Source: Eubacteriales bacterium | GTDB lineage: Bacteria; Bacillota; Clostridia; Oscillospirales; CAG-272 | Length of the DNA stretch: 64,000 nucleotides | Assembly (NCBI GenBank): GCA_045594705.1 | Contig: JAZNZB010000038.1 | Location: 20,234 to 84,233 of the forward strand | Reading direction: 5' to 3' | Shown here: piece by piece, positions 304-24,857 of the stretch | Numbering within the stretch: the stretch's first letter is position 1 | Layout: every line of letters starts with the position of its first letter | Translations under genes and position numbers: made by a program | Notes under the pieces: model-generated | Seen by the model: only the letters and a program-made list of their open reading frames with translations | Databases searched by the model: none | Told to the model about the DNA's origin: nothing

Positions 304-1839
304 TCAGTCTCTCTTTTTTGCAACGAATGCAACGCCCAGCAGTGCGATCAGTGCAGCTGCGGGAGCTGCTACGACAGCGCCGCAACCGGACTTTTCAGCC
401 TCGGTGGTCTGCTCTTGGCTCTCAGTCTCGCTTTGGTCTGCCGAAGGCTCTTCCGTTTCGGGAGCATCGGTCTTTGGAGGCTTGGTTTCCTTTTCGGTCG
501 TCTCGGGCAATGCACCAAGCAGATCGATCAGATAATCCTTTGCATACTGCTCTGCGTCCTCGATGGTGCGGAAGCATGCAATGTACGCAATGTCGTAGTG
601 CTTCAATTCCTCGTCAGTATTGTTCACGTTCTGAATATCCATACGGATCATATTGACTCTGCCCTGCCAATCAAGGTCGTCGGTCAGATCCAGAACACCC
701 ATGCACCATTCATCGCCAAAATCATATTCGGCAATATCGATCTCACAGCTGCAATCGGGCTGTGCACTCAGATTCTTGCCTGCACTGTAGAAAACAAGGC
801 CGGATTCAGCATAGCAGGCTCTTGTGAGAATCGCGATCACGGGGAAATCTGCAGCCTCATAGGACACGGCCACCTTGGGAGAGAAAATGATATAACCCGA
901 AGCGGTCAGCGCGGTTGCCTTCATCGTACCGTCCTCGTTGACGGCAAGGTCGATATTCGAGCTCTGGAACTGGTTGAACTGCTCCTTGGCAGAATTCCAG
1001 ATCAATGCAGGCTGACCTTCGGGAACGGTGGAAGAATCCGCGATAGGCGCAAAGTTGTTGCGGTTTTCCTCGGGCTCCATGCTGTCCTCACCAAAAGGAA
1101 CCTCGCCCTGGAACTTGCTGATGTTCGCTCCGATGGAAGAACCGGACTCGGTAGAATAGAAGGAAATACCCACGTATGCACCGTCTGCGCAGTAAGTATC
1201 CAGAGTCTCGTCCGCTAACTTGGTCACGTCCTCAAACTTGGTTCCGCACAGATAGAAGGCATAGCCCGTACCTGTATACTCTACCTCAAAGGTATAGGTT
1301 TCCTGTCCCTGCTCGTTGACCGGGATAGTGACTTGCTGCTGGCTGAACAGCGTGTATCCTCTGTCGTCATTGAGATAGTGGAACTGCGCAACAGCAGCGC
1401 CTTCGCCTGCTCCGCGGATCAGCACGGAAACGCCCTCGCCGTATCCCTTCTGACCGGGTGCGAAGATCTCTTTGCTGTGCAGAGAGATGCCAACCCAGTG
1501 GTCACTGCCTTCATAAGCAAAATCGGTTACGGTGAATTCCAAGGAAATGGATCTGCCGTTACCTGCTGCGTTGGTATCCTTGAGATTATAGGGGGTCTTG
1601 GTATGAATGTGGGTATAGGGGGTGTTATTGGTATAGTCTGCAGAATCCAACACAAGGCCCTTGTCTACTTCATAGTGAAAACCGCAATAAGGTCTGTAGC
1701 TATCGGGATCCTGATAGTCGTCCGCAGCGCGGGTTGCAACCCAGTCACCTTCAACCGCTGCTGCACCGGGAATGATCATCACGGACGCAACGGACAGAAT
1801 CATCACTGCTGTCAAAGCCAAAACAAGAATTTTTTTCAT
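304..1839 (-). CDS. Secreted, C-terminally anchored two-domain protein, uncharacterised family (paralog A)
   Basis: 511-aa ORF with GGAG RBS. Signal peptide MKKILVLALTAVMILSVASVMIIPGAAA, mature start VEGDWVATRAADDY. Blocks shared with the three neighbours (LIRGAG, KFQGEVPFGEDS, SYEAADFP, DIAYIACFRTIEDAEQYAKDY), P/T/E linker, tail EKSGCGAVVAAPAAALIALLGVAFVAKKRD. Confidence 0.9.
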   Translation of the reverse strand: MKKILVLALTAVMILSVASVMIIPGAAAVEGDWVATRAADDYQDPDSYRPYCGFHYEVDKGLVLDSADYTNNTPYTHIHTKTPYNLKDTNAAGNGRSISLEFTVTDFAYEGSDHWVGISLHSKEIFAPGQKGYGEGVSVLIRGAGEGAAVAQFHYLNDDRGYTLFSQQQVTIPVNEQGQETYTFEVEYTGTGYAFYLCGTKFEDVTKLADETLDTYCADGAYVGISFYSTESGSSIGANISKFQGEVPFGEDSMEPEENRNNFAPIADSSTVPEGQPALIWNSAKEQFNQFQSSNIDLAVNEDGTMKATALTASGYIIFSPKVAVSYEAADFPVIAILTRACYAESGLVFYSAGKNLSAQPDCSCEIDIAEYDFGDEWCMGVLDLTDDLDWQGRVNMIRMDIQNVNNTDEELKHYDIAYIACFRTIEDAEQYAKDYLIDLLGALPETTEKETKPPKTDAPETEEPSADQSETESQEQTTEAEKSGCGAVVAAPAAALIALLGVAFVAKKRD

Positions 1840-1878
1840 TTTGTCTCTCCTTGAATAGGAATTATTGAATACACATTT

Positions 1879-1907
1879 ATTATATCACTTTTTCATTTTT
1901 CTGTAAA
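1879..1907 (-). promoter_or_regulatory. sigma-A type promoter of paralog A (TTTACA-N17-TATAAT, TG-extended -10)
   Basis: Minus strand: CACCATTTACA gaaaaatgaaaaagtga TATAAT. The same layout precedes all four paralogs. Confidence 0.6.
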
Positions 1908-1943
1908 TGGTGACATTCCACAAATATGTGTCCCCGTTTCGTG

Positions 1944-1980
1944 CAAAATAACAAGGGCTGACGCCAAAGCGTCAGCCCTT
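1944..1980 (-). terminator. Rho-independent terminator of paralog B
   Basis: AAGGGCTGACGC/GCGTCAGCCCTT stem (1953-1964 / 1969-1980) followed by a T-rich tract on the minus strand, after the stop at 1995. Confidence 0.7.
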
Positions 1981-1994
1981 AAAATAGTGATATC

Positions 1995-3542
1995 TTAGTC
2001 CTTCTTTTTTGCAACGAATGCAACGCCGACAAATGCAACCAGTGCTGCAACGGGAGCGATCGCTACAGACTTGCAGCCGCCGGACTGCTCTGCATCGGTG
2101 GAAACTTCCTCGGAGGGAATCTCTTCGGTGGGAGCATCGGTCTTTGCCTCAGTCGTGGGAGCTTCGGTGGTGGGCTCTTCGGTAGGCTTTTCGGTGGTCT
2201 CGGGCAGCTTGCCAAGCAGTGCTACAAGAGTATCCTTTGCATACTGCTCTGCTTCCTCGGCAGAACGGAATGCACCGAAGAATGCAATGTCAAAGCTCTT
2301 CATAGAATCATCTGTGTAATCGATGTTATAGAAGTCGAGACGGAGACCGTTCATCTTTCCTTCCCAGTCGGGGTCTTCGTTCAAGTCAACAATAGACATG
2401 CCCCAGCCTTCGCCAAGATCGACCTCATACATGTCGAAATCACAGTAGTTCTGCGAGCCAACGCCCAGCGTCTTACCTGACATATAGTAGAATCTTCCGG
2501 ATTCTGCATTACAGTTCTTGTAAAGAACAGCAAGATACGGGAAATCGGATGCCTCATAGGTATAATCCATGTTAGGTCCGAAGTTAATGTAGGGAGAAGG
2601 AGCGTTGGCGGCAATGGTTACTATACCGTTTTCCTGAATGGTATAATCACCGTTGCTGAGAGAAACCTTATCATACTGCTCCATCTTACCATCCCACTTG
2701 ATTGCGGGCTGACCCGCGGGAACGTTGGAGGAATCAATGATCTCCGCAACCTTAGTAACGTTGGGTTCGGGCTCAGCACTATCTTCACCATAAGGAACAT
2801 CGCCCTGGAACTCAGTAATCAAGAAAGATGCAGGGGTTTCGATCTCCTGGGTCATAAGAGTGATGCCGAGGTATGCACCGTCAGCGCACTTTTCGTCCAA
2901 AATTCTGTTGAGCTCGCCGGTAGAATCGGAGAACTCAGTGCCGCAAAGGTTCATTACATACTCGCTGCCATTATGTCTGATCGAGAAGGAATATTCCTCC
3001 TGGCCGGCTTCATTGAGTGTGGGATAGACAGTGCCTTCGGTAAACATCTTGAAGATGTTGTTGTCCTGGTCTACGTAGCAGGGCTGACCCGTAGTAGCGC
3101 CGTTACCAAAACCACGCATCAGGATGCAGAGGCCGGAACCGTAATTGGTGTTACCCTGTGCAACCTTATCCTCGCTGTTAAGGGTGATTGCGATCCAGTG
3201 GTCACAGTCGCCATACGCATACTCGGTAATGGTAAACTTAACAGAAAGCGCGTTTCCGTTACCGTCAGCATCGGGGTCCTTCAAATTATAGGGCTTTCTC
3301 GTATTGACTTGCACGTAAGGTGCGCAGTTAGTAAAGTCTGGCGAAATGACTTGGAATCCCTCGGTGGTATACTTGTAACCGGCAGCGGGGGTGTAGTGTT
3401 CCTCATCTTCGTAACCGTCGGCAGATCTCGTTGTAATAAAATCACCTTCAACAAGCTCTGCAGCAGAGGTGGTGGTTGCAAGTACAGTCAGTGTAGAAAT
3501 AGCCATGGTCAGTACAAGCAACATAGTCATCAATTTTTTCAT
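1995..3542 (-). CDS. Secreted, C-terminally anchored two-domain protein, uncharacterised family (paralog B)
   Basis: Start moved to the internal ATG at 3542 (MKKLMTMLLVLTMAIS...), which has an AGGAG RBS and a promoter at 3588-3616. Signal peptide, mature LVEGDFITTRSADGYEDE, family blocks, tail EQSGGCKSVAIAPVAALVAFVGVAFVAKKKD. Confidence 0.9.
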   Translation of the reverse strand: MKKLMTMLLVLTMAISTLTVLATTTSAAELVEGDFITTRSADGYEDEEHYTPAAGYKYTTEGFQVISPDFTNCAPYVQVNTRKPYNLKDPDADGNGNALSVKFTITEYAYGDCDHWIAITLNSEDKVAQGNTNYGSGLCILMRGFGNGATTGQPCYVDQDNNIFKMFTEGTVYPTLNEAGQEEYSFSIRHNGSEYVMNLCGTEFSDSTGELNRILDEKCADGAYLGITLMTQEIETPASFLITEFQGDVPYGEDSAEPEPNVTKVAEIIDSSNVPAGQPAIKWDGKMEQYDKVSLSNGDYTIQENGIVTIAANAPSPYINFGPNMDYTYEASDFPYLAVLYKNCNAESGRFYYMSGKTLGVGSQNYCDFDMYEVDLGEGWGMSIVDLNEDPDWEGKMNGLRLDFYNIDYTDDSMKSFDIAFFGAFRSAEEAEQYAKDTLVALLGKLPETTEKPTEEPTTEAPTTEAKTDAPTEEIPSEEVSTDAEQSGGCKSVAIAPVAALVAFVGVAFVAKKKD

Positions 3543-3587
3543 TCTAACTTCACTCCTTTTCTCATAAAAGTTATCGATTACTATTAT

Positions 3588-3616
3588 ATTATATCTCTTA
3601 AAATTAATTATGTAAA
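3588..3616 (-). promoter_or_regulatory. sigma-A type promoter of paralog B
   Basis: Minus strand: CACTATTTACA taattaattttaagaga TATAAT. Confidence 0.6.
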
Positions 3617-3664
3617 TAGTGAACCTACACAAATATTCTGACGCAAAACTATAAAATAATACAA

Positions 3665-3694
3665 TAAAAAAGGGGCTGCCGAAATCGGCAGCCC
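3665..3694 (-). terminator. Rho-independent terminator of paralog C
   Basis: GGGCTGCCGA/TCGGCAGCCC stem followed by TTTTTT on the minus strand, after the stop at 3721. Confidence 0.75.
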
Positions 3695-3720
3695 AAACGG
3701 TTAATAAATTCAGTCAAGAA

Positions 3721-5280
3721 TCAGTCCTTCTTTTTTGCAACGAATGCAACACCGAGAAGTGCGATCAGTGCAACTGCGGGAGCGATGACTACGGACTTGC
3801 ATCCACCGGACTGTTCAGCATCGGTGGTAGCTTCCTCGGAAGGATTCTCTTCCGTAGGAGCATCGGTCTTTGCCTCGGTCGTGGGAGCTTCGGTGGTAGG
3901 CTCTTCGGTAGGCTTTTCAGTCGTCTCGGGCATCTTGCCAAGCAGAGCAATCAGATAATCCTTTGCGTACTGAACGGCTTCCTCTTCGGTGCGGAATGCT
4001 GCAAAGAAAGCAACGTCAAAGTTTGCAGTTTCTTCATCGGTATAATCCACATCTTTGAAGTCAAGTCTCATACCATTGATTCTGCCCTCCCATTCGGGAT
4101 CATCCGTCAGGTCAAGAACAGACAGACCCCAGCCTTCGCCAAAGTCATAATCGTCATACATGATATCCATCAGGCAATCGGAATTTGCACCCAGGGTTCT
4201 GCCGGAATAGTAATACATCTGTCCATCGAGATCTAAGCAATTTCTGGTCAAAGCAACAACGATCGGGAAATCGGAAGCTTCGTAAGAAATATCGTTTTTG
4301 AGGTTGAAACTGATGTAAGGACCGGTACCGTTTGCTTTCAGGGATACAATACCGCTTTCCTGAACTGTATAGTCAGCATTGGAAACAGAAATCTTATCAT
4401 AATACTCAGCCTTACCATCCCAAATAACAGCAGGCTGGCCTGCGGGAACGGTTGAGGAATCAGCGATCTCAGCAAAATTCTTCACGTTAGCTTCGGGATC
4501 TGCACTGTCTTCACCGTAAGGAACAGCGCCCTGGAATTCAGTGATCACAAAGGATGCGGGAGTTTCGATCTCGGTGGTCATCAGAGTAATACCGAGATAT
4601 GCACCTTCAGCACACTGCTCGTCAAAAACTCTATCCAGATTTCCGTCGGGATCGGAAAATTCAACACCGCACAGATTCATCACGTATTTGGTGCCGTCAT
4701 GCTTGATCGAGAAGGTATATTCTTCCTGGCCGTCATCGTTCAAAGTAGGATTGATCTGGCCCTGCGTGAAGAGAGAGAACTTATTGTTCTCTTTGTCAGA
4801 ATAGTGAGGCTGTCCGGTAGCAGCACCGTTACCTGCACCGCGGATCAGAATGCAAAGGCCGGAGCCGTAAGCGGGATTACCCTGGGTTGCAGTAGGCTCG
4901 CTGTTGAGAGTGATAGCGATCCACTCGTCCTTGTTGTTGTACTCGCCGCCATAAGCGAATTCCTGAACGGTGAATTTTACGGAAAGCGCATTGCCGTTCT
5001 CATCAGCATTAGGTGCCTTGAGATCATATGCTTCTTTTGTATGCGCTTGAATGTAGGGGCTGCAATTGGTAAAATCGGGAGCAACCGTCTGGAAGCCCTC
5101 GGTTGTATACGTGTAGCCTGCAGCGGGCGTATAATCGGTAACACCCTCTTCGTATGCATCGCCTGCTCTGGAGGTTACCCAGTCGCCTTCTACCTCGGCT
5201 GCATTTGCGGGGATTGCCAGAACAGTCATAGTTGCCAGCAACAGACACATTGCGAGCATGATTGTCAATAATTTTTTCAT
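3721..5280 (-). CDS. Secreted, C-terminally anchored two-domain protein, uncharacterised family (paralog C)
   Basis: Start moved to ATG at 5280 (MKKLLTIMLAMCLLLATMTVLAIPANA) with AGGAG RBS. Mature EVEGDWVTSRAGDAYEE, family blocks, tail EQSGGCKSVVIAPAVALIALLGVAFVAKKKD. Confidence 0.9.
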   Translation of the reverse strand: MKKLLTIMLAMCLLLATMTVLAIPANAAEVEGDWVTSRAGDAYEEGVTDYTPAAGYTYTTEGFQTVAPDFTNCSPYIQAHTKEAYDLKAPNADENGNALSVKFTVQEFAYGGEYNNKDEWIAITLNSEPTATQGNPAYGSGLCILIRGAGNGAATGQPHYSDKENNKFSLFTQGQINPTLNDDGQEEYTFSIKHDGTKYVMNLCGVEFSDPDGNLDRVFDEQCAEGAYLGITLMTTEIETPASFVITEFQGAVPYGEDSADPEANVKNFAEIADSSTVPAGQPAVIWDGKAEYYDKISVSNADYTVQESGIVSLKANGTGPYISFNLKNDISYEASDFPIVVALTRNCLDLDGQMYYYSGRTLGANSDCLMDIMYDDYDFGEGWGLSVLDLTDDPEWEGRINGMRLDFKDVDYTDEETANFDVAFFAAFRTEEEAVQYAKDYLIALLGKMPETTEKPTEEPTTEAPTTEAKTDAPTEENPSEEATTDAEQSGGCKSVVIAPAVALIALLGVAFVAKKKD

Positions 5281-5320
5281 GTTTTTTCTCCTTTCCTTAT
5301 GAAATAATTCTGACTTAATT

Positions 5321-5349
5321 ATTATAACATCAATCCACACCGCTGTAAA
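5321..5349 (-). promoter_or_regulatory. sigma-A type promoter of paralog C
   Basis: Minus strand: CACTATTTACA gcggtgtggattgatgt TATAAT. Confidence 0.6.
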
Positions 5350-5404
5350 TAGTGAATTTGAACAAATCAGCCTTCTCTAAAACAACACTTTCAACAATGA
5401 CATA

Positions 5405-5429
5405 GGGGCAGTCGCGATGCGACTGCCCC
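5405..5429 (-). terminator. Hairpin terminator of paralog D
   Basis: GGGGCAGTCGC/GCGACTGCCCC perfect stem after the stop at 5459. The trailing T tract is weak. Confidence 0.55.
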
Positions 5430-5458
5430 TGATTCGGGTCACTATATTCAGTTATGAA

Positions 5459-7048
5459 TTAGTCCTTCTTCTTTGCTACGAAAGCAACGCCCAGAAGAGC
5501 AACCAGAGCTACTACGGGAGCAGCAATGATGGAGCCGCAGCCGGACTTTTCAGCCTCGGTGGTAGCTTCCTCGGTGGGAGCCTCAGTGGAGGGAGCGGTG
5601 GTTGCGGGAGCATCGGTAGTGGGAGCCTCGGTCTGTTCCTCAGTGGTGGGTTCCTCAGTGGTAACTTCTTCTGCATTGTAGCCCTTAGAGGTCAGCCAAG
5701 CCTGGGTGTAAGCGGTAGCCTCTTCAACGGAGCGGAATGCGCCGTAGAAAGCGATATCGAAGTTGTTGTACTCTTCGTTGGTAATATCGTCTGCATCAAA
5801 GTCGTAACCAATACGGATGCTGTTGATTCTGCCTTCCCAACCACCAATAGCGGTCTCATCATCATCGTCGGTGTAATCGGAGAAGTCAATGATACCCATG
5901 GTCCAGCCGCCACCGAAGTCATACTCGGTGGGATCCCAGGTTTCGCTGTAGGTGTTCTCAGCGCTCAGGATGTCACCTGCGCAGTAGTAAACGTTACCCT
6001 GGTTAGCCCAGCAGTTTCTGGTCAGAACTGCGATGTAGGGGAAGTCAGCTGCTTCGTAGGAAACCTCGGACTTAACGCCCAACGTGATATAGGGGGACTG
6101 AGTCTGTGCGGTAACCTTAACGGAACCGTCCTCGTTGATCTCGTGTACGCCACCTGCTACGCTGATCTTTCTGAAGTCTCTGAGGGTAGAATCCCACAGA
6201 ACTGCAGGCTCGTTAGCGGGGATGTTTTCGGAGGGAGCGATGGGAGCCTTAGCACGGAGGTCCTCTTCGGGAACTGCGGAGTCGTCACCTACAGGGATAT
6301 CGCCCTGCCACTCGGTGATAGCAAAGGAAATCTTCGAATCAGCAACACCGGTCTGAGTGCAGATATTTACATAGCAGCCTTCAGCAAACACTTCATCAAA
6401 GTGAGCGTTCATCTTATCGTCGCCAACAAATTCGTGACCGTTTACAGCAACTACGTAGCCGCCATCAGCATACTTAACAGTGAAGGTGTACTCTTCCTGA
6501 TCATTGTCGTTCATAGGAACTTCAATCGTGGGGAAAGCAGCAGTAAGAGGAACCCAGTTAGCGTCCTTATCAACGTAGAAGGGCTGAGCCTGGGCGGAGC
6601 CGTAGCCGCCGCCACGAATCAGAATGCAAAGACCCTCGCCGTATTCAGCACTGGGGGGAGCAGACATATTGCCGCTGGACAGGTTGAAGGAGATCCACTG
6701 GTCCTTGCCTTCGCCGCCGTCATAAGCGTACTCAAGAATGGTCATCTTGAGGTTAACGGAATAACCGTTACCATCGTTATTAGCCTTGAGATCTACAGGG
6801 TTCTTGAGGTGTACCTGAACGAAGGGAGTATTGTTGGGAGCGTACTCGGGAGGATCAACAACAAAGCCCAGTTCGGGATCGTAGTGGTAGCCAGCTGCGG
6901 GGCAGTAGCTGCCTTCGTCTTCATAGTCGTCAGCACTTCTGGAGGTTACCCAGTCACCTTCGAGCGCTGCGGAGGTAGAAACTACCATAGCAGCTGCCAG
7001 GGACAGAACCATCAGAGAAGCGAGCAGCACGGAAAGAAATCTTTTCAT
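5459..7048 (-). CDS. Secreted, C-terminally anchored two-domain protein, uncharacterised family (paralog D)
   Basis: 529-aa ORF, AGGAG RBS. Signal peptide MKRFLSVLLASLMVLSLAAAMVVSTSAA, mature LEGDWVTSRSADDYEDE, family blocks (LIRGGG, EWQGDIPVGDDS, SYEAADFP, FDIAFYGAFRSVEEATAY), tail EKSGCGSIIAAPVVALVALLGVAFVAKKKD. Confidence 0.9.
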   Translation of the reverse strand: MKRFLSVLLASLMVLSLAAAMVVSTSAALEGDWVTSRSADDYEDEGSYCPAAGYHYDPELGFVVDPPEYAPNNTPFVQVHLKNPVDLKANNDGNGYSVNLKMTILEYAYDGGEGKDQWISFNLSSGNMSAPPSAEYGEGLCILIRGGGYGSAQAQPFYVDKDANWVPLTAAFPTIEVPMNDNDQEEYTFTVKYADGGYVVAVNGHEFVGDDKMNAHFDEVFAEGCYVNICTQTGVADSKISFAITEWQGDIPVGDDSAVPEEDLRAKAPIAPSENIPANEPAVLWDSTLRDFRKISVAGGVHEINEDGSVKVTAQTQSPYITLGVKSEVSYEAADFPYIAVLTRNCWANQGNVYYCAGDILSAENTYSETWDPTEYDFGGGWTMGIIDFSDYTDDDDETAIGGWEGRINSIRIGYDFDADDITNEEYNNFDIAFYGAFRSVEEATAYTQAWLTSKGYNAEEVTTEEPTTEEQTEAPTTDAPATTAPSTEAPTEEATTEAEKSGCGSIIAAPVVALVALLGVAFVAKKKD

Positions 7049-7103
7049 GATGAAAATCTCCTTTGATAAAAATAGTTTTGGTATCGCATATATGCGCAGT
7101 ATT

Positions 7104-7132
7104 ATTATAGCACAATTGTCAAATTCCGTAAA
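7104..7132 (-). promoter_or_regulatory. sigma-A type promoter of paralog D
   Basis: Minus strand: GCCTATTTACG gaatttgacaattgtgc TATAAT. Confidence 0.55.
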
Positions 7133-7203
7133 TAGGCACTTTTACGAAAAATCACTTAATTTACTGGTATTATTGCACAAAACAAGTTCACATCGGCATC
7201 ACA

Positions 7204-9300
7204 TTACAAAAGCGTCTCATAGTAGTATATAGGCAGTGCGCTCCAGCCGTGACAAAGGCTTGCGGCGTGCCCGAAATCCGAAAGGCCGATGATGGTCTCC
7301 CAGAAGGTGGTTGCACCGTTGCGCAACATATGAAAATAGTCACGGTCCAGCTCGTCAATGATCACCCCTGCGTATGCTTCCCTGTCATATGATAGCAGCG
7401 CGTCAAAGCGGAAGGAGTTCATGCTCAGCGTATTGGGATGCACCGTATATCCGCAATTGTCTTTTCCGTTGGTAGCGAGAATACGCAAAATATTGGTCTT
7501 ATCAACGCCATCTGCCGCGCCGCACAGCATGCAAAGTGCATTGGTCAGCACGCTGTATTCCCCTCTGCAACGGTTTTCAAACGACTCGAACAGGCGAGTC
7601 TCGGGATTATAGAATTCCCTTGCGATCGCTGCGTTGACGCGCTTTGAAAGCTCGCGGTATTCCCCTGCCTCTCGGGTCTTGCCGAGCGCATCACAGATCT
7701 TTGCCATATGCACAAGCGCAAGCGAGAAAAAGGCGTTGAGCGGTGCTTCCATGCTGCGGTTTTGCTCAAAGAAATGGCCGTTCATGCCGGGACTCCATTC
7801 ATAGAAGTTCCAGTATCCTCCCTCACCGTAGAAATTCTCGATCAGGCCGCTTTCCTGCAGCTTTCCGATAAACGTATGGATGATGGTATCCAGCACGGGA
7901 TAGCACTCCTCTGCGAGCGTCACGTCGCCCGTGTAGCGAATGTATTCCTCCATCTGGATAAAATACACGGTTGAGAAGGACGGAATGGGAAAATCCTTGC
8001 CTGCGGGATAGCAAAGCGTCAGAATGCCGTCCGGGCGCAAGCCCTTGGAGATCAATTTCAGATTGGCGCGCGGGAAATCCTTTTCGCCAAAGGCATAATA
8101 GCCGCAAAGCATCTGATTGCGCGAGTCCATGCAATAGAGTGCCTGCTCTCTCCAGGGGCAGTCCTCATAGTGCTCGTGCATGCATTGCAGCAGCGTATTG
8201 GCACAGACCTCGTAGATGGTATTCTGCAAGAGATTTCCCTTTTCGAATTTCTTGGCGGTCACGGGATACAGCGTAGGTCTCAGACCTGCGTAATGCACGG
8301 TAAATTCGGTGGCGTTGACAAAGAACTGCACGTATCGGCAGCCAAAGCGTCGGAAGGTATGCAGGTATTGGTTTCTTCCCTTTTTGGCTCTGTAATCGGC
8401 CGAGAATCCTCGCACGGACGTGCGGCATCTGCCGTCGGCCAGGTGCTCTCCGTAGCCGATCTCGATCTGACAGTCGTGCGGTACTTCAATGTCAAAGTCC
8501 AAAAATCCCGCCCATTCCTGTCCGAGATCCACAATAAAGAAGATGCCCTGCGCCACGTCCTCTGTCTTAAAATGCACCGGCTTGTCAAAGCCGAAGAATC
8601 CGCGCATATCCGAGATCTGCTCGGGATAACGGTGACGAAGCGCTGCGTGTTGCATCATCTTATCGGGGCTTGTATGCTGCTTTTCCACGTAATCAAAAAG
8701 GCCTTGCATACACATCTGCGCTTGTGTTCTCGGAGCAAGCTCCAGCATTTTGACGGGTCGCAGCGTAAAATCGGTGGAGATCATGGGCATGAGCACACTC
8801 GGCGCAAAGCCATCGGTCACATCCCGTTCGATAAAGCCATCGTACGAGGTAGCGTCGTAGTGATAGGTATAGCCCAGCTGCCCCGAGATCAGCTGTCTGA
8901 CGTGCGAAATGTAGTCGCGCGACAAGCGCGAAAGCGTGCTTTCATCCGAGTAACAGATGGGAGTATCCTGCTCACGGATCTCGAAGATCACACCCGGATC
9001 ACCGTGAATGTAGGTCTGCGTGTCGTCGCCATAGTACCACACTACGATGACCAGTTTGTTCTTGCCTGCCTTGACAAATTTGGTGACGTCCACGCGGTCA
9101 CAGACCTTGTAGGTGGGATAATCGGCATATTGGCCAAAGGCGGCAAGCTCGCCGTTAAGGTACACGGTATAATTGGAGTCTGCGGCTATGGTCAGCGTAT
9201 AAGGTGCTTGCCCGCTTGCATCAAATTCCGCAATGAAGTCCGCAAATTCATCCGACAGGAGCTCCCCTGCCTTCCAGATCCATTTAGCTTTCTGAAACAT
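7204..9300 (-). CDS. GH78-like (alpha-L-rhamnosidase-related) six-hairpin glycosidase, cytoplasmic
   Basis: 698 aa. N-terminus MFQKAKWIWKAGE... is typical of the rhamnosidase N-terminal domain, and EDCPWREQALYCMDSRNQ resembles the GH78 DCPxRE(R) motif. No signal peptide. Family call is from motif memory only. Confidence 0.6.
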   Translation of the reverse strand: MFQKAKWIWKAGELLSDEFADFIAEFDASGQAPYTLTIAADSNYTVYLNGELAAFGQYADYPTYKVCDRVDVTKFVKAGKNKLVIVVWYYGDDTQTYIHGDPGVIFEIREQDTPICYSDESTLSRLSRDYISHVRQLISGQLGYTYHYDATSYDGFIERDVTDGFAPSVLMPMISTDFTLRPVKMLELAPRTQAQMCMQGLFDYVEKQHTSPDKMMQHAALRHRYPEQISDMRGFFGFDKPVHFKTEDVAQGIFFIVDLGQEWAGFLDFDIEVPHDCQIEIGYGEHLADGRCRTSVRGFSADYRAKKGRNQYLHTFRRFGCRYVQFFVNATEFTVHYAGLRPTLYPVTAKKFEKGNLLQNTIYEVCANTLLQCMHEHYEDCPWREQALYCMDSRNQMLCGYYAFGEKDFPRANLKLISKGLRPDGILTLCYPAGKDFPIPSFSTVYFIQMEEYIRYTGDVTLAEECYPVLDTIIHTFIGKLQESGLIENFYGEGGYWNFYEWSPGMNGHFFEQNRSMEAPLNAFFSLALVHMAKICDALGKTREAGEYRELSKRVNAAIAREFYNPETRLFESFENRCRGEYSVLTNALCMLCGAADGVDKTNILRILATNGKDNCGYTVHPNTLSMNSFRFDALLSYDREAYAGVIIDELDRDYFHMLRNGATTFWETIIGLSDFGHAASLCHGWSALPIYYYETLL

Positions 9301-16547: not shown

Positions 16548-18398
16548 TTATTCATACATTTCAATCGATCCCGTTTCAGTATAAACCATACCGTCCGTAC
16601 AGTATATCGCTATTCCCTTCCTGATAGCTCCCTGAGCGATATCGATTTTCAACCATTCTTCAACCGTTCCTTGGTAATCCACGCGCCATAACGAAGTTCC
16701 CGGAACCAGTGCATTGCTTTCAATCCTATTGAGACTTGTCGGAAGTGTCACGCTTGTTAACCATTCACAATTGTAAAACACGTGACTTGGCAAGACCTCG
16801 ATCGGTTGTTCAAATACAATATCACAACCGATTCCGCTTTCCCTGAATGCGGATGCTCCGATTTTCTGAATTTTGACAAGCCCGTCAATCTCATAAAGAA
16901 CGTGACATTTTCTGAATGCAAACGCTCCAATTTCAGTCAGGTTTTCATTGACTGATACATGTTTGAGCGAGGCGCATCCATCAAACATGTTCGAAGGAAT
17001 AGCCAAAAGACCGCCAAGATCTGCACGCATCAGATTTTCACATTGCAAAAACACTCCTTCTCCTATATGCTCAATGTTTTCGCCAATCTTTACAGAGGCG
17101 ATAGAATTACACTTAGCAAATGCCTCGTCTCCTATGCTTGTGACATTCACAATGCTTAAGTTACTTAATGAAGTACATTGATAGAATGCTTTTTCACCAA
17201 TTTCTCTCACATACGCCAAATCTACTTTTTCAAGTGAGATACAGCCCATAAAAGCTTCGTCCCCAATTTTTTGTATGGTGTCGGGCAAGTCAACCATTGT
17301 GATCGATTCATTTCCCTTAAATGCGCCGTCGCCGATACTCGTCACTTGCGCCATCTCTATCTCTTCCAGTGCACTGCAATATGCAAATGCAGAATCACCG
17401 ATCGAAACGGGACCATCGGGGATGGAAAGCCGCTGCAAGGCAGAGCAGTTTTCAAACGCCTGCTTGCCGATCTCTTGCAGCTTATCGCTGCTGATCTCTA
17501 CCGAATTCAGAGCGTGACAGCCTGCAAAGGCTCTCTCACCAATGCTTTGCAGCTCAGCAGGAAATTCAACGCTTTCAAGCGAGGTGCACTTTTCAAATGC
17601 GCTGTTCCCAATGGTGATAATGCTGTCACTCATTCTGACCGTCTTGAGCTGCTTGTGCCCCTTAAAAGCGCCCTCATTGATGGTCGTGACGGGAATCCCC
17701 TTGTATTCACCGGGGATATAGATCTCCCCCCAGGTGCCGTTCATCGCGTGTATCCAATACTCAAGCGACTCCGTTTGCTCGTTGAAATGCAAATACAGCA
17801 TCACACCGTGAATACTCGTGATCTCGGGAATATCATCGGGAATCGTAACGTCGGGCGGGATTATATCCTCGACTCGCTCTGTCTCTGTGCCCTGTATGAT
17901 CTCTCCGAAGGTCTCGTCGCTCAGATCGTTTTCCAAATAATACTGATACATACGGTCCAAAAACGTGCCGAGATCAGCGGATAGATCTCCGACAAGGCCG
18001 CCCGAACCCTGCTTCATGGCTTCGATGATGGAGTGCTCTCCTCCTGCGCCAAGCACGTCAAACAGCGTATCGGTCAGTGGCCAATGTACCCACAAGGCTT
18101 CGGATCGGTTGCCGTCCTCGTCGCCGCTCTGAGGAAACATGACATGGTCAACGACCTCGGACACGGTGTTATTGATCGGCTCTCTGAACACGATATAGGT
18201 CAGCGGCAGGCTGCAAAGCAGCAGCGCAAATACAAGCACAAGGCAGGCGGCACTGATCAGCAAAGCACGCATATAGTGCTTTTTGTGCGGAGGCTTTTTG
18301 GCAAGCCCTGCGTCCATTCGTTCAAATTCATCCAGATAATCCGGATCGATCTTGCCGATCGCATCGGTCAGCAGATCGCGATTGATTTGCTTACTCAT
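16548..18398 (-). CDS. Single-pass membrane protein with extracellular BspA-type leucine-rich repeats; putative anti-sigma/sensor partner (L1)
   Basis: 616 aa. Short cytoplasmic head (LLTDAIGKIDPDYLDEF), a TM segment (ALLISAACLVLVFALLLCSL), a juxtamembrane block shared with L2/L3, then about 23-aa repeats of the form xxIGxxAFxxCxxLxxVxIPxxV. The start ATG overlaps the stop of the upstream sigma gene (ATGA). Confidence 0.85.
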   Translation of the reverse strand: MSKQINRDLLTDAIGKIDPDYLDEFERMDAGLAKKPPHKKHYMRALLISAACLVLVFALLLCSLPLTYIVFREPINNTVSEVVDHVMFPQSGDEDGNRSEALWVHWPLTDTLFDVLGAGGEHSIIEAMKQGSGGLVGDLSADLGTFLDRMYQYYLENDLSDETFGEIIQGTETERVEDIIPPDVTIPDDIPEITSIHGVMLYLHFNEQTESLEYWIHAMNGTWGEIYIPGEYKGIPVTTINEGAFKGHKQLKTVRMSDSIITIGNSAFEKCTSLESVEFPAELQSIGERAFAGCHALNSVEISSDKLQEIGKQAFENCSALQRLSIPDGPVSIGDSAFAYCSALEEIEMAQVTSIGDGAFKGNESITMVDLPDTIQKIGDEAFMGCISLEKVDLAYVREIGEKAFYQCTSLSNLSIVNVTSIGDEAFAKCNSIASVKIGENIEHIGEGVFLQCENLMRADLGGLLAIPSNMFDGCASLKHVSVNENLTEIGAFAFRKCHVLYEIDGLVKIQKIGASAFRESGIGCDIVFEQPIEVLPSHVFYNCEWLTSVTLPTSLNRIESNALVPGTSLWRVDYQGTVEEWLKIDIAQGAIRKGIAIYCTDGMVYTETGSIEMYE

Positions 18399-18976
18399 AC
18401 CGAATATCCCTCCTCTTCCAATCTTTGTTTAAGCTCAGATCTGAGACTTGCAAGCTCCTTGTTGATCTTAGAGCGGCTGCGACCCAGTTTTTTTGCAATC
18501 TGATCAATCTGATGCCCATAGAAATAACGGCTGATGAAAATATACTGACTCTCTCCTTCAAGCCCTGCCATAAACTCATCCAGGACGCTCGACAAAACGT
18601 CACTGTCCTGCTCTGTGTATCTGATCGGTTCTTCCGAAACGAACGAAAAATCCGAGAGCGAGATGGGCTGGCTGTCCCCTCCGCGCTTTTGTCTGTTATG
18701 GTGTCTGTAATACATCATAGCCTGGCGGCGCATGATGACAGACAAAAAGGCCTTAAGCACGCGAGGACGCTTGGGCGGCATGGAGTTCCATGCGCCGAGA
18801 TACGTATCGTTCAGGCATTCCTCGCTGTCCTGGAGATCATGCAGAATATTGTTTGCAACCGTCATCAAATATGCACGGTATTTCTGATCAGTCAGACGAA
18901 TGGCCTCCTGATCTCTTGCCCAATACAGATCAATGATGGTCTCGTCATCAGGCAGGTAGGTTTTGATTTGTTGCAT
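18395..18976 (-). CDS. Sigma-70 family (ECF-like, regions 2 and 4) RNA polymerase sigma factor (S1)
   Basis: Start set at ATG 18976 (AGGAG RBS), 193 aa. IIDLYWARDQEAI...LQDSEECLNDTYLGAWNSMPP (region 2) and YIFISRYFYGHQIDQIAKKLGRSRSKINKEL (region 4 HTH). Confidence 0.9.
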   Translation of the reverse strand: MQQIKTYLPDDETIIDLYWARDQEAIRLTDQKYRAYLMTVANNILHDLQDSEECLNDTYLGAWNSMPPKRPRVLKAFLSVIMRRQAMMYYRHHNRQKRGGDSQPISLSDFSFVSEEPIRYTEQDSDVLSSVLDEFMAGLEGESQYIFISRYFYGHQIDQIAKKLGRSRSKINKELASLRSELKQRLEEEGYSV

Positions 18977-18995
18977 GTCATCTCTCCTTGTTGAG

Positions 18996-19034
18996 CTTTT
19001 CACCTATATAGATGCTAAAATTTTGAAAATGTGT
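18996..19034 (-). promoter_or_regulatory. Conserved upstream motif of sigma gene S1 (candidate alternative-sigma promoter)
   Basis: Minus strand: ACACATTTTCAAAATTTTAGCATCTATATAGGTGAAAAG. Related blocks sit at the same place upstream of S2 and S3. No TTGACA-N17-TATAAT is present. Confidence 0.45.
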
Positions 19035-19088
19035 ACGCTTTTGATTCAATTTTATCATATTTTCAAAAAAAATCAACAGACAAACAAA

Positions 19089-19114
19089 GGCAGAGAGCCA
19101 AAATGCCCTCTGCC
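19089..19114 (-). terminator. Hairpin terminator after L2
   Basis: GGCAGAGAGC/GCCCTCTGCC stem (one mismatch) with T-rich flanks on both strands, directly after the stop at 19128. Confidence 0.65.
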
Positions 19115-19127
19115 CTGCTTTTTTTGT

Positions 19128-21230
19128 TTATTCTATTACGATCTCACCGTCGGTGCAGACGATTTTGACTCCGCTTGGGATTGCGCGAGTGTCGACTTGA
19201 ACCTTGCTTTCAAATTCCTGCACAGTTCCCGGATAGTATATTGACTTAAGATTTGCACATCCGGTAAATGCATCGGATACGATATGCTCAAAATTCTCAG
19301 GCAGATAGACCTCTTCCAGATTTGCACAATCCTGAAATACGCGGCTATCAATCGTATCAACCTTATCCGGCAGTGTAATTCGCACAAATCCTGTGTTTGT
19401 AAACATGCCAATGCACAAGTCTCTTCCGTCAAATCCCTCTCCAAAGGTGACGTTTTTGAGCGAATAGCATCCCATAAAGAGCTCGAACGAATCCGGGAAT
19501 TCCTCAATGAATGCGGGCACGTATGCACTCTGCAGGCTCACACAATCCTGGAATACGCGTTCACCCATTTGGTCTACGCCGTCAGGTATCGAAACGCTTG
19601 ATAAGGACGTGCATCCTTTAAAGGATTCGAGCCCTACGGTAAGCAAAGTCTTTGGCAAATACAGTTCCTTGACATTGGTACAATTCAAAAACGCCCTTTG
19701 ACCTATGATTTCAAGCCCTTCAGGCAATATCACCGCCTCAAGAGAGCTGCAGGTTGAAAATGCGTATTCGTATATATTCTTCAAATTTTTAGAAAACGTG
19801 ACCTGCTTTAAGCCTGTGCAGCCTCCAAACGCGCTGCTTTCGATTGTTGTAACGCCATCGGGTATGACGATCTCTTGGAGCGATACACAATAGTTGAAGG
19901 CAGACGCACCGATGGTTTGGCACGAAGTTGGCAGTACGATCTCTTTGAGCTTTCCGCATCTGTAAAAGCAATCGGACGGTACGGTCTCAAGGCTCTCAGG
20001 CAACGTGACGCTGACAAGCTCCGAGCAACCCGAAAATGCCGACGGCTCTATCGTGGTCACACTTGGCGGCAGGACGATCGATTCCAGTCCACTTCCTGTA
20101 AAGACTGCACTGCCGATATCCTGCAGCTGCGCGGGTAGTTCGATCGTTTTGATTGCAATACAACCTGAAAAAGCATGATCGAGAATTCTTATACAGCCTT
20201 CCCCGATGATCACCTCTGTCAAATTCACGCTATCCGAGAAGCATTTTGCGGGAATGGTTGTAAGATTCTTGGGCAAAACCGCACGATTCATTCTCTGGCT
20301 GTTTAAGAATACACCTTCATCCATGCTTTGTAAGGAATCCGGAAGCTCCAGCTCTCTGATATCATTGCAGTAAAAGGCTTCCCGACCGATATGCTGCAAA
20401 TTCTGCGACCACTTGACCGTATGCAGCTGCGTACTGTAGTAAAAAGCCTCTGCTTGAATTTCGGTAATACTGTCGGGCAATATGAGTTCTTTTATAAACA
20501 CGTTGTTATAAGCCGCTTTTTCTACTATGACCTGAACGGGCAGACCGTTGATCTCTGCAAGAATTTCCACGACACCGTCACCGTTCGAAAGCTCTGACGT
20601 AGTTTTGATATTCGTGACTTGCCAATAGTCGTCCTTTTCTCCGCGCTCATAAACGATGCCGTTATGCTCGTATACGGTTTGCTCACCTTGCGTCGTAGGC
20701 TCCTCAGGCTCGTCTGTCGTTTGCTCGGTATCCTGCTCGATCGGGGGCTCCGGATCAGTCTTGTGCTTATGGTAATACTCATACAAGCGTTCAAGGAACG
20801 CACCGATGGATTGCATGATCTCCCCAAAAAGACCGCCCTGCATTCCCTGCATCTGATCGATGACGGAATCTTCTGTGCCCGCGCCCAAGGCTGCAAACAA
20901 CTCTTCCGAAAATTCCCACTCGATCCAATTGAGCAACAGATCCTCTTGCTTGATATCGGTTTCTTCATCATCTAAGGGGAAAAGCACGCGGTCGATCGAT
21001 TCGATTACGGCAGAATTGATCTGCTCGCGATGCACGATATAGGTCAGCGGCAAGGATGCCAGCAGCAAACTAAAGGTCAAAAGCAGACAAGCCGCTGCGA
21101 TCAGTAGCTTGCCCCACGCGGGCATGCGGCGCTTTTTTCGCAGCAAAAGACGGGTTTCCATTTGCGTATAGCTCTCAAGCAGATCGGTATCGATCATGCC
21201 GATCGCATCCAATAACATATCCTGCGTCAT
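19128..21230 (-). CDS. Single-pass membrane protein with extracellular BspA-type leucine-rich repeats; putative anti-sigma/sensor partner (L2)
   Basis: 700 aa. MTQDMLLDAIGMIDTDLLESY head, TM (LLIAAACLLLTFSLLLASL), conserved juxtamembrane block, acidic linker, long LRR array. ATGA overlap with S2. Confidence 0.85.
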   Translation of the reverse strand: MTQDMLLDAIGMIDTDLLESYTQMETRLLLRKKRRMPAWGKLLIAAACLLLTFSLLLASLPLTYIVHREQINSAVIESIDRVLFPLDDEETDIKQEDLLLNWIEWEFSEELFAALGAGTEDSVIDQMQGMQGGLFGEIMQSIGAFLERLYEYYHKHKTDPEPPIEQDTEQTTDEPEEPTTQGEQTVYEHNGIVYERGEKDDYWQVTNIKTTSELSNGDGVVEILAEINGLPVQVIVEKAAYNNVFIKELILPDSITEIQAEAFYYSTQLHTVKWSQNLQHIGREAFYCNDIRELELPDSLQSMDEGVFLNSQRMNRAVLPKNLTTIPAKCFSDSVNLTEVIIGEGCIRILDHAFSGCIAIKTIELPAQLQDIGSAVFTGSGLESIVLPPSVTTIEPSAFSGCSELVSVTLPESLETVPSDCFYRCGKLKEIVLPTSCQTIGASAFNYCVSLQEIVIPDGVTTIESSAFGGCTGLKQVTFSKNLKNIYEYAFSTCSSLEAVILPEGLEIIGQRAFLNCTNVKELYLPKTLLTVGLESFKGCTSLSSVSIPDGVDQMGERVFQDCVSLQSAYVPAFIEEFPDSFELFMGCYSLKNVTFGEGFDGRDLCIGMFTNTGFVRITLPDKVDTIDSRVFQDCANLEEVYLPENFEHIVSDAFTGCANLKSIYYPGTVQEFESKVQVDTRAIPSGVKIVCTDGEIVIE

Positions 21231-21808
21231 ACCAAGTAGCCCTCCTTTGCCAAATGCTCGCGAAGACCTCGCTTGATGTCATAGACGTCCTTATTGACCG
21301 TGGATTTGCTGCATCCAAGCTCGGATGCGATCTGATCCAAGCCCTTTGCATAATAATATCGGCTGATGAATACATAGCGCTGTCGTGCGCTCAGCGTACG
21401 CAGCCAATCGCTGATGGCCTGACCCAATTCGGCAGTTTCCTGCATGGTATACGAGCCCTCCTGATCAGGCACATAGTCCTCAAAATCGGTCAATGAAAAG
21501 GTGACCCTCAGATCCCTTTTCTGCCTGTGCTTTTCCCTGTATTTGCTGATGGCGATCCTGCGCATGATCGAGCCCAAGAAGCTTTGCAGCACGTTGGGAC
21601 GGTGCGGCGGAATGGCATTCCAGGTGCTGACGTAAGTATCATTCAAGCATTCCTCGCTATCCTGCATATCGTGCAGGATATTCTGCGAGACGCTGATCAA
21701 AAATCTGCGATACTTGACGTCGGTCGCCTCTATGGCCTTTTCGTCGCGTGCCCAATACAGTGCAATGATCTCTTGGTCACTGCGCAAACTTACGTTTTGT
21801 TCTTGCAT
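21227..21808 (-). CDS. Sigma-70 family (ECF-like) RNA polymerase sigma factor (S2)
   Basis: Start set at ATG 21808 (AGGAG RBS), 193 aa. IIALYWARDEKAIE...MQDSEECLNDTYVSTWNAIPP and YVFISRYYYAKGLDQIASELGCSKSTVNKDV. Confidence 0.9.
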   Translation of the reverse strand: MQEQNVSLRSDQEIIALYWARDEKAIEATDVKYRRFLISVSQNILHDMQDSEECLNDTYVSTWNAIPPHRPNVLQSFLGSIMRRIAISKYREKHRQKRDLRVTFSLTDFEDYVPDQEGSYTMQETAELGQAISDWLRTLSARQRYVFISRYYYAKGLDQIASELGCSKSTVNKDVYDIKRGLREHLAKEGYLV

Positions 21809-21837
21809 TGTCACGTCTCCTTTTTGTTTGATATGGG

Positions 21838-21876
21838 CTTTCGTAAGTATAGTCGCCAAACGAAATGGAAAAGTGT
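21838..21876 (-). promoter_or_regulatory. Conserved upstream motif of sigma gene S2
   Basis: Minus strand: ACACTTTTCCATTTCGTTTGGCGACTATACTTACGAAAG. Aligns with the S1 and S3 blocks. Confidence 0.4.
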
Positions 21877-21945
21877 AAAGATATTGATAATTTTCCTCTA
21901 TTATCATTTTATCATAAAATCGCAATTTTGCAAGAGGAAAAGCAA

Positions 21946-21972
21946 GGCAGAGAGCCCGAAGACTCTCTGCCC
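21946..21972 (-). terminator. Hairpin terminator after L3
   Basis: GGCAGAGAG/CTCTCTGCC stem followed by TTGCTTTTCC on the minus strand, after the stop at 21982. Confidence 0.65.
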
Positions 21973-21981
21973 TGCAAAATT

Positions 21982-24273: not shown

Positions 24274-24857
24274 ACCTTGTATCCCTCCTTTTCCAGCGTT
24301 GCTTTCAAAGAAGTCTTGATGTATGCGATGTCCGCATTGACGGTCGATCGTGCACAGCCGAGTGCTTGCGCGATCTCTTCAATGGAGCGGGCATCGAAAT
24401 ACCGGCTCATAAAGACGTAGCGTTTGCGCTCATCCAATGTTCTGATCCAAGCGCTGATCACATCGGACAGTTCCCTTGCTTCTCTTTCATCATAAGAGGC
24501 AAAGTCGTCCGATAACACGCCCTCCAAATCGGAAAGCGGTGCAACAAATGCGGGCGGAATGGCCTTTTTGGTATGCTTTTTTCTGTATCGGTCAATGGCA
24601 AGATGACGCGTAATGGTGCTCAAGAACGCCTGCAGCACGTTTGGTCTGTGCGGCGGCATGGACTCCCATGCACCAAGATAGGTGTCGTTGAGGCATTCCT
24701 CACTGTCCTGCATATCCGAAAGGATGTTATGCGCGACGCGCAGCAAATAATTGCGGTATTTGAGATCCGTATACTTGATCGCCGCTTCATCTCTTGCCCA
24801 ATACAGCTCAACAATGGCCGAATCGCTGAGCATATAGGTCTGATTCTGATTCATCAT
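24270..24857 (-). CDS. Sigma-70 family (ECF-like) RNA polymerase sigma factor (S3)
   Basis: 195 aa, AGGAGG RBS. IVELYWARDEAAIK...MQDSEECLNDTYLGAWESMPP and YVFMSRYFDARSIEEIAQALGCARSTVNADI. Confidence 0.9.
   Translation of the reverse strand: MMNQNQTYMLSDSAIVELYWARDEAAIKYTDLKYRNYLLRVAHNILSDMQDSEECLNDTYLGAWESMPPHRPNVLQAFLSTITRHLAIDRYRKKHTKKAIPPAFVAPLSDLEGVLSDDFASYDEREARELSDVISAWIRTLDERKRYVFMSRYFDARSIEEIAQALGCARSTVNADIAYIKTSLKATLEKEGYKV

Follow-up and report, generated by a model that had tools for sequence, protein, structure and literature searches.

Four tandem genes near one end of a 64,000-nucleotide (nt) stretch of contig JAZNZB010000038.1 (Eubacteriales bacterium, assembly GCA_045594705.1), the whole of which we call the window, encode paralogous proteins that all end in a Gly-Cys motif, a hydrophobic helix and a short Lys-rich cluster. 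The question raised by this locus is what the Cys tail does: does it simply hold its proteins in the membrane, or is it a sorting signal with processing enzymes of its own? We find that it is very probably a modular sorting or anchoring domain. By analogy with known Cys-type signals, we put a probability of about 60% on a pathway in which an Lgt-family transferase would lipidate the Cys and a CPBP-family protease would then remove the helix. On the best reading of the available data, the tail would add a fifth member to the Cys-type C-terminal sorting systems; it would be the first of them from monoderm bacteria and the first in which lgt is physically coupled to the protease.

The four paralogs lie in tandem on the minus strand between window positions 304 and 7048, at 304-1839 (paralog 1, 511 aa), 1995-3542 (paralog 2, 515 aa), 3721-5280 (paralog 3, 519 aa) and 5459-7048 (paralog 4, 529 aa), with open reading frames (ORFs) taken from MKK start codons. 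As read from the ORF list and translation of paralog 1, and likewise in the other three, each protein consists of a Sec-type signal peptide (MKK..AxA), a body of about 410 aa, an acidic linker of about 45 aa rich in Thr, Glu and Pro, and the Cys tail. They end, directly before the stop codon, in AEKSGCGAVVAAPAAALIALLGVAFVAKKRD, EQSGGCKSVAIAPVAALVAFVGVAFVAKKKD, EQSGGCKSVVIAPAVALIALLGVAFVAKKKD and AEKSGCGSIIAAPVVALVALLGVAFVAKKKD, respectively. A preliminary description, made from the DNA alone, had reported that all four share a Gly-Cys / hydrophobic helix / KK(K/R)D end and lack LPXTG; the ORF translations confirm the shared end and contain no LPXTG-type pentapeptide, and the tail-coding stretches it gave (304-399, 1995-2090, 3721-3816 and 5459-5554) are exact.

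In the window the tail takes the form [K/G]SG(G)-C-[G/K], followed by 20-21 uncharged residues and KK[K/R]D before the stop codon. Scored against our tail hidden Markov model (HMM) A3, for which background is below 5 bits, the four minus-strand tails reach 58.7 bits for paralog 1 (304-393; KSG, Cys at 382-384, GAVVAAPAAALIALLGVAFVA, KKRD), 51.3 bits for paralog 2 (1995-2084; SGG, Cys at 2073-2075, KSVAIAPVAALVAFVGVAFVA, KKKD), 61.6 bits for paralog 3 (3721-3810; SGG, Cys at 3799-3801, KSVVIAPAVALIALLGVAFVA, KKKD) and 63.9 bits for paralog 4 (5459-5548; KSG, Cys at 5537-5539, GSIIAAPVVALVALLGVAFVA, KKKD). No ORF of the 64 kb window other than paralogs 1-4 ends in such a tail, and a degenerate DNA pattern for the tail matched the window twice, while 100 shuffles gave 0.00 matches. 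Averaged over pairs of paralogs, identity rises from 38% in the signal peptide to 47% in the body, 60% in the linker and 75% in the tail. The tail had been called far better conserved than the linkers; it is better conserved, but only moderately so by these figures, in which linker identity is inflated by low complexity. Since the paralogs differ synonymously at 2-8 of 26 tail codon positions, the tail is conserved by selection on the peptide and not by recent gene conversion.

Searching 5.8 billion proteins, we found 54 members of the paralog family present in the window; the few with a source name are labelled as metagenome-assembled genomes (MAGs) of Clostridia. Whether orthologues keep the Cys had been proposed as a test of the sorting-signal reading, and the residue is present in 54/54 homologues down to 27% identity, located 24-29 residues from the C-terminus. 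A word-indexed search with the tail alone returned only fragments of 40-81 aa, and modularity was therefore judged by an exhaustive HMMER search of 1.84 billion cluster representatives with a tail-only profile of 34 positions. This profile matched 328 representatives at E<=1e-3, and the match lies at the C-terminus in 147 of the 150 best. The 52 matches of at least 200 aa have bodies from at least 29 unrelated clusters, and about 40 of the 52 carry a Sec signal peptide. Judged from these sequences, the Cys tail is a module and not a quirk of one family.

An alignment of 198 tails shows Gly directly before the Cys in 183 of them. The Cys is followed by G/K/A, S/G/A, V/I and V/I, the helix beginning without a spacer, and the basic cluster starts 19-23 residues past the Cys. 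In the 30 residues that precede the Cys, Thr makes up 20%, Glu 18%, Ala 15% and Pro 10%. The resulting consensus is a T/E/A/P-rich linker, [K/E][K/G/S]-G-C-[G/K/A]-[S/G/A]-[V/I]-[V/I], about 17 more uncharged residues, and [K/R]KK[E][D/N] before the stop codon.

To place the tail taxonomically, we scanned 185,579 species-representative genomes with a strict, codon-neutral DNA pattern, G-C-G-x-[VIM]2-x17-[KR]K[KR][DE], which covers about 25% of tail variants; its coverage is down to roughly a quarter because Asp or Glu is required after the basic cluster. The pattern matched 93 stretches in 46 species genomes, five at most in any one of them. All matches form the ends of long ORFs, and the 93 loci contain 110 tail ORFs in all. 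The 46 genomes are without exception MAGs of uncultured Clostridia from the animal or human gut (rumen, colon, rectum or faeces), with NCBI labels that include Eubacteriales and Oscillospiraceae MAGs, Ca. Scatosoma, Clostridium sp. CAG:448 and 'Mageeibacillus sp.' UBA1212. The tail is confined to one clade of uncultured Clostridia of the gut and rumen, and its distribution looks like that of a dedicated system.

The tail has the architecture by which tripartite sorting domains are generally recognized (a motif, a transmembrane helix and a basic cluster at the extreme C-terminus of proteins with an N-terminal signal peptide) as well as their modularity, with at least 29 body clusters and up to five strict-pattern stretches per genome. 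The resemblance to a tripartite protein-sorting signal suggested in the preliminary description is therefore supported by the design of the tail, the invariant Cys, the spread over at least 29 families, the several copies per genome and the narrow taxonomy.

Some carriers depart from the common layout. Of the 94 tail-profile matches of 150 aa or less, 19 consist only of a lipoprotein-type signal peptide with a lipobox Cys, an acidic T/E/P/A linker of 18-94 aa and the Cys tail; these mini-proteins include the metagenomic sequences P0057, P0076, P0090, P0106, P0122, P0150, P0173, P0183 and P0194. Processing at both ends, if it occurs, would leave short peptides with a lipid at each terminus. A divergent tail subtype occurs in a family found at loci L012 (1321-3030), L043 (473-2110) and L088 (3097-4428), with ends such as ..LFGNHCRSTIVTP..FKKKD: the Cys, helix and KKKD are kept, while the acidic linker and the Gly before the Cys are absent. 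This family sometimes adjoins arrays of window-type paralogs. One MAG contig, L091, encodes both an LPXTG-like signal (..PVPTGDSALIF..AKRREN) and a Cys tail (..KSGCGAVISGG..KKKEF) in genes at 1543-3372 and 5554-7455, so the two types of C-terminal signal coexist in the clade.

We then asked whether the tail belongs to a sorting domain that has already been described, a point on which the preliminary description took no position. Against NCBIfam release 20 (June 2026) we scanned 16 sequences, namely the four paralogs, two isolated tails and ten unrelated carriers; the Pfam scan covered the four paralogs and ten carriers. None of these 16 sequences reached a curated cut-off of the NCBIfam or Pfam models, and no existing CTERM model covers the motif, the best scores all being below cut-off. 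Synerg-CTERM (TIGR04564, cut-off 22.5) scored 16.7 bits (E 0.0055) on the paralog-2 tail and 11.3 bits on carrier P0181, and GG_III-CTERM at best 15.7 bits (cut-off 22). Rumino_NPXTG scored 10.6-16.1 bits, over the helix and basic part only (cut-off 23.5). We rejected PGF-CTERM membership on scores of 7.9-16.6 bits for PF18204 (cut-off 18.8) and 7.4 bits for TIGR04126 (cut-off 24.5). The MYXO-CTERM domain model gave no match at E<=10 for the paralogs and two tails or at E<=1 for the ten other carriers, while whole-protein models of MYXO-CTERM-anchored families gave weak, far sub-threshold matches to tail proteins. TIGR04288 (CGP-CTERM) gave no match. Four Cys-containing tripartite signals have been described, MYXO-, JDVT-, Synerg- and CGP-CTERM, none of them in Firmicutes and all paired with CPBP proteases (Haft 2023 preprint); such CPBP-processed Cys-type signals were described between 2023 and 2025 from three diderm bacterial lineages and one archaeal order. 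Full-text literature searches found no prior description of a clostridial or Firmicutes system.

It is very unlikely that the tail is a member of Synerg-CTERM or MYXO-CTERM missed through HMM thresholds. Synerg-CTERM is a Ser/Gly cluster ending in one invariant Cys without a spacer (Haft 2023), and its model gives the best of the sub-threshold matches. However, all scores of the 16 proteins are under the curated cut-offs, the basic cluster here is Lys-rich and ends in Asp or Glu, and Synerg-CTERM is confined to Synergistales (Synergistota), where its profile picks out a divergent type II secretion operon (Haft 2023). The CPBP proteases described below score 22 bits against the MrtS model of that system, for which the cut-off is 130. 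We rejected Synerg-CTERM membership because neither the domain model nor the MrtS cut-off is reached (21.8 bits for the CPBP) and the hosts are all Clostridia, not Synergistales. MYXO-CTERM/myxosortase membership fails likewise, with no domain-model match and Mrt_core scores of 16-24 bits against a cut-off of 100.

A divergent sortase signal, in which a specialised sortase would read xSGCG in place of LPXTG and link the protein to peptidoglycan, seems to us hardly plausible. In its favour, the host belongs to the Firmicutes, local sortase signals have a similar helix and basic end (14-16 bits for Rumino_NPXTG), and the same clade has LPXTG-like signals such as the PVPTGD...KRREN of L091. But the tail has no Pro/Thr pentapeptide and no spacer between motif and helix, the latter a hallmark of signals handled by membrane-embedded enzymes (Haft 2023). 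The sub-threshold HMM match spans the helix and basic part only, and the window scans contain no sortase. An LPXTG/NPXTG sortase signal was rejected on the missing pentapeptide and the Rumino_NPXTG scores below 23.5.

For candidate processing enzymes, we turned to the 93 tail loci. All-against-all clustering of their ORFs gave no recurrent enzyme neighbour, and a lead arose only from a motif screen of multi-transmembrane ORFs around the loci. In a goat-rumen Clostridia MAG (JAFSVU, locus L022), an Lgt homologue (PF01790, 107 bits) is encoded between two tail-bearing genes, and the end of its gene overlaps the gene of an Rce1-like CPBP protease (PF02517, 62 bits against a gathering score of 22.4). 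Lgt homologues from these loci score 107-143 bits for PF01790, well above the gathering score of 24.9. The CPBP subfamily defined by the L022 protein comprises 516 proteins, of which the best 120 are 41-98% identical to it, mostly over more than 85% of the query length. The catalytic motifs are invariant in 40 sequences: E126-E127-x3-R131 (EExxxR), F159-x3-H163 (FxxxH) and, in the third motif (HxxxN/D), H207. An AlphaFold2 (AF2) model of the CPBP (pLDDT 89.7) has its best PDB matches in the CPBP-fold SpdC (probability 0.99) and APH-1.

We examined the linkage of tail, lgt and CPBP in the neighbourhoods of 11 members of this subfamily and 80 further metagenome loci, with CPBPs de-duplicated at 90% identity. 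Tail genes were called with a broad tail HMM, requiring the match to fall at the ORF end and to reach 14 bits, a threshold set by a reversed-sequence control that peaks at 11.5 bits. In 45 of 50 informative clusters, lgt is the gene immediately upstream of CPBP and either overlaps it or lies no more than 450 nt away. Among the 35 Lgt-CPBP clusters with enough upstream DNA, 18 have a same-strand tail-bearing gene no more than 1 kb away, upstream of lgt in 17 and downstream of CPBP in one; after de-duplication at 70%, the proportion is 14/27. Flank DNA more than 2.5 kb from the Lgt-CPBP pair contains 4 tail ORFs in 320 kb, so that about 0.4 adjacent tail genes would be expected by chance and the observed number represents a roughly 40-fold excess. 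Because the adjoining tail genes span at least seven unrelated families, with only the signal peptide and tail as common features, and stand beside different CPBP lineages, the linkage is not one inherited arrangement. The search for a partner enzyme, a check proposed alongside the preliminary description, thus leads outside the window, to a co-located Lgt homologue and CPBP/Rce1-like protease beside which tail genes occur far above chance.

The same linkage could be read differently if the Lgt-CPBP pair served the maturation of N-terminal lipoproteins, with the CPBP acting in N-acylation like S. aureus LnsB, the adjacency being inherited synteny and the tail handled otherwise or not at all. 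LnsB, a CPBP-family protein, does act in lipoprotein modification in Firmicutes (PMC7387801), lgt may be the genome's only copy, and the pair is found in housekeeping contexts such as ftsK-lgt-CPBP. LnsB has lost the CPBP catalytic residues (PMC7387801), whereas this subfamily keeps them invariant, and the adjacent tail genes come from at least seven unrelated families in different CPBP lineages. We rejected an LnsB-like role for the CPBP on its intact catalytic motifs, and consider this explanation as a whole improbable.

A passive type I membrane anchor would need no partner enzyme: the helix would stay for the life of the protein, and the Gly-Cys would serve for a disulfide to a partner, for S-acylation without cleavage or for helix packing. 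With some 20 hydrophobic residues and then KKKD, the tail would serve well as a stop-transfer anchor; roughly half of the Lgt-CPBP loci lack a nearby tail gene, the window encodes none of the candidate enzymes, and cleavage is something that we infer. A passive anchor does not account for a Cys that stays invariant, together with its fixed preceding Gly and the small residues that follow, in over 300 cluster representatives and 29 or more unrelated families; nor does it account for the narrow taxonomic range or for the roughly 40-fold excess of tail genes, from at least seven cargo families, beside Lgt-CPBP. We hold it to be rather unlikely.

Several observations count against the assignment of the tail to the Lgt-CPBP pair. 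The window itself contains no candidate processing enzyme, as had been noted from the sequence: Pfam scans of all large window ORFs found no sortase, CPBP, rhomboid or Lgt, and tblastn and HMM searches of the window for candidate enzymes gave no match. The exact paralog-1 protein is not on record, and the window's genome is not tied to an Lgt-CPBP locus. No tail gene is nearby in 16 of the 35 Lgt-CPBP loci, and five CPBP clusters have no adjacent lgt. In the tail-bearing Clostridium sp. CAG:448, lgt is not followed by this CPBP in the approximately 300 nt before the locus sequence ends. JAFSVU is the only genome that matches both the strict tail DNA pattern and the CPBP search; the whole-genome shotgun prefixes JAFTPD, CBDPOZ, CBDTEC, CBDQSI and JAGCSF of other CPBP loci are not among the 46 pattern-positive genomes. 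The CPBPs are far under every myxosortase model, at 24-27 bits for MrtJ (cut-off 75), 16-24 for Mrt_core (NF040914, cut-off 100) and about 22 for MrtS (NF040589, cut-off 130). The Lgt homologues score 55-90 bits against the TIGR00544 equivalog, below its cut-off of 118.9, and seven of them (L022, L084, L097, L101, L103, L105 and L107) have GR[IL]GC[FL]xAGCC[YH]G rather than the GRxGNFxNxE of E. coli Lgt. The Lgt homologue may be simply a housekeeping enzyme. A check for a second, specialised copy gave no paralogue-specific signature, since the same GCC-type motif occurs in the Lgt of CAG:448, which is not linked to a CPBP.

Within one CPBP clade, CPBP is followed by the gene of a conserved protein whose C-terminal end is a Cys-less helix plus ..IFVTDxEKKIIGK[KR] (L022, 4422-5390, minus strand; L101, 11374-12279; L103, 11059-12024; L105, 10764-11219; L191, 2254-3201). 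A metallophosphoesterase gene comes next in most of these loci, with a 2-oxoacid-dehydrogenase-type acyltransferase gene also present in several of those.

With these points taken into account, we favour the reading in which Lgt lipidates the Cys and the CPBP removes the helix, at the probability of about 60% given above. Proteins with the observed N-terminal signal peptides would be exported across the membrane by Sec. The C-terminal helix would then hold the protein in the membrane, with the Lys cluster on the cytoplasmic side and the Gly-Cys at the outer surface, a topology that follows from the positive-inside rule. There, the Lgt-family transferase would put a lipid on the thiol of the invariant Cys, and the dedicated CPBP/Rce1-like glutamic intramembrane protease, encoded right behind lgt, would cut after the Cys and remove the helix together with KKKD. 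The lectin-like cargo would stay on the outer leaflet through its C-terminal lipid. We infer lipid attachment and cleavage from the gene neighbourhood and the analogy to MYXO-CTERM/myxosortase, where cleavage by MrtX is experimental and Lgt has been named the leading candidate for the lipidating enzyme (PMC11980579).

This reading is supported by the working model for MYXO-CTERM, by the absence of a spacer between motif and helix, which has been noted for signals cut by membrane-embedded enzymes, unlike LPXTG (Haft 2023), and by a resemblance to the lipobox. Read from the helix outward, the signature in the 198 tails is [VIM]-[SGA]-[GKA]-C, a mirror image of the lipobox [LVI]-[ASTVI]-[GAS]-C. 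We speculate that this symmetry in sequence might be the rationale for recognition by an Lgt-type enzyme. More tentatively, and with some doubt, we suggest a 'reverse lipoprotein' pathway in Gram-positives, in which an Lgt-family enzyme would place diacylglycerol on the Cys of a mirror-image lipobox, just outside a C-terminal helix of inverted topology, and a translationally coupled CPBP would remove the helix to leave surface proteins with a C-terminal lipid anchor; the lgt-CPBP pair would then also reveal which enzyme, long sought, lipidates the Cys in every Cys-type signal (MYXO-, Synerg-, JDVT- and CGP-CTERM).

The proposed pathway would bring the logic of CAAX processing and of MYXO-CTERM/myxosortase to a monoderm bacterium. 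In CAAX processing, which is eukaryotic and archaeal, a prenyltransferase and then Rce1 act in the same sense, with a lipid on a near-C-terminal Cys and a CPBP cut after it. That process is cytoplasmic, uses a prenyl lipid and removes three residues, whereas the process proposed here would be extracytoplasmic, probably use diacylglycerol and remove a helix of about 25 residues. The N-terminal lipoprotein pathway (lipobox, Lgt, LspA) similarly has a Cys at the outer end of a cleavable helix, small neighbouring residues and a basic cytoplasmic end, and the clostridial tail has a linked Lgt-family gene and a signature that mirrors the lipobox. Here, however, the signal is C-terminal with inverted chain polarity, and the CPBP would cut after the Cys, while LspA cuts before it. 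The system of archaeomyxosortase MrtA in Thermococcales also operates in a single-membrane cell, and CGP-CTERM likewise has a Cys-Gly signature abutting the helix, a Thr-rich linker, a CPBP partner and, as the expected outcome, a lipid anchor that replaces the helix. It differs in being archaeal, in its 20-aa Cys-Gly-Pro motif and in its model TIGR04288, which does not match here. To our knowledge, Archaea have no Lgt homologue.

In MYXO-CTERM/MrtX (mBio 2025, PMC11980579), an invariant Cys likewise lies in a GC-type motif, one genome encodes multiple substrates (dozens in Myxococcus, several here) and a CPBP removes the helix, as we propose here. Lipidation of the Cys before cleavage has been proposed there with Lgt as the leading candidate (PMC11980579), and we propose the same order. 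Unlike the clostridial tail, MYXO-CTERM belongs to Myxococcota, has an Arg-rich tail and ends with export to the outer membrane by a type II secretion system. The papers that we consulted report no link to lgt in gene order, whereas here lgt and CPBP overlap. Synerg-CTERM/MrtS (TIGR04564, NF040589; Haft 2023) is alike in its small Ser/Gly-rich signature, the invariant Cys abutting the helix, the basic cluster and the predicted CPBP/Rce1-like partner. The clostridial system differs in its hosts, which are Clostridia and not Synergistales, in its KKK(E)D basic cluster and in a CPBP of another subfamily (22 bits against a cut-off of 130) that is coupled to lgt; in addition, we saw no type II secretion system in any clostridial locus examined. 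LPXTG/sortase, the Gram-positive surface-display signal, shares with the tail its order of motif, helix and basic cluster on signal-peptide proteins; in contrast, the tail has an invariant Cys, no pentapeptide and no spacer, and its enzyme is likely membrane-embedded rather than a sortase.

If correct, this would be the first Cys-type CPBP-linked system in monoderm Bacillota and the first case in which gene order ties a signal to both a CPBP protease and an Lgt homologue, and the tail would label many surface proteins of gut and rumen Clostridia that are abundant but uncultured. Through this gene order, the guess that the Cys is lipidated by Lgt becomes directly testable on a cassette of three genes. 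HMMs for the tail and for the CPBP subfamily, two in all, would improve the annotation of hundreds of 'hypothetical' surface proteins.

As to the cargo in the window, the bodies of the four paralogs have no Pfam or NCBIfam family match. An AF2 model of paralog 1 (pLDDT 83.7) has two beta-sandwich domains, at approximately residues 33-245 and 275-440, for which the best Foldseek matches are ConA-like lectin/glucanase folds (GH16, legume-lectin-like, PL7 and CBM66; domain-level TM about 0.5). Based on the model, the paralogs are probably glycan-binding or glycan-cleaving surface proteins. Directly upstream of the array lies a GH78-like gene (alpha-L-rhamnosidase six-hairpin) at 7204-9300 on the minus strand. 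A relative with three paralogs (L001, GH78-like gene at 5894-7990) keeps the order helicase, aminotransferase, radical SAM, GH78-like and paralogs.

Two other features of the window concern its ORFs. Long antisense ORFs of up to 549 aa run over the four paralogs on the plus strand, at 244-1218, 2973-3641, 4699-5271 and 5417-7066; they resemble coding-strand shadow ORFs rather than genes. Further along, positions 16548-24857 of the minus strand hold three successive pairs of an extracytoplasmic function (ECF) sigma factor gene and a gene for a large BspA-type LRR_5 protein (18395-19003 with 16548-18398, 21227-21925 with 19128-21230, and 24270-24857 with 21982-24273).

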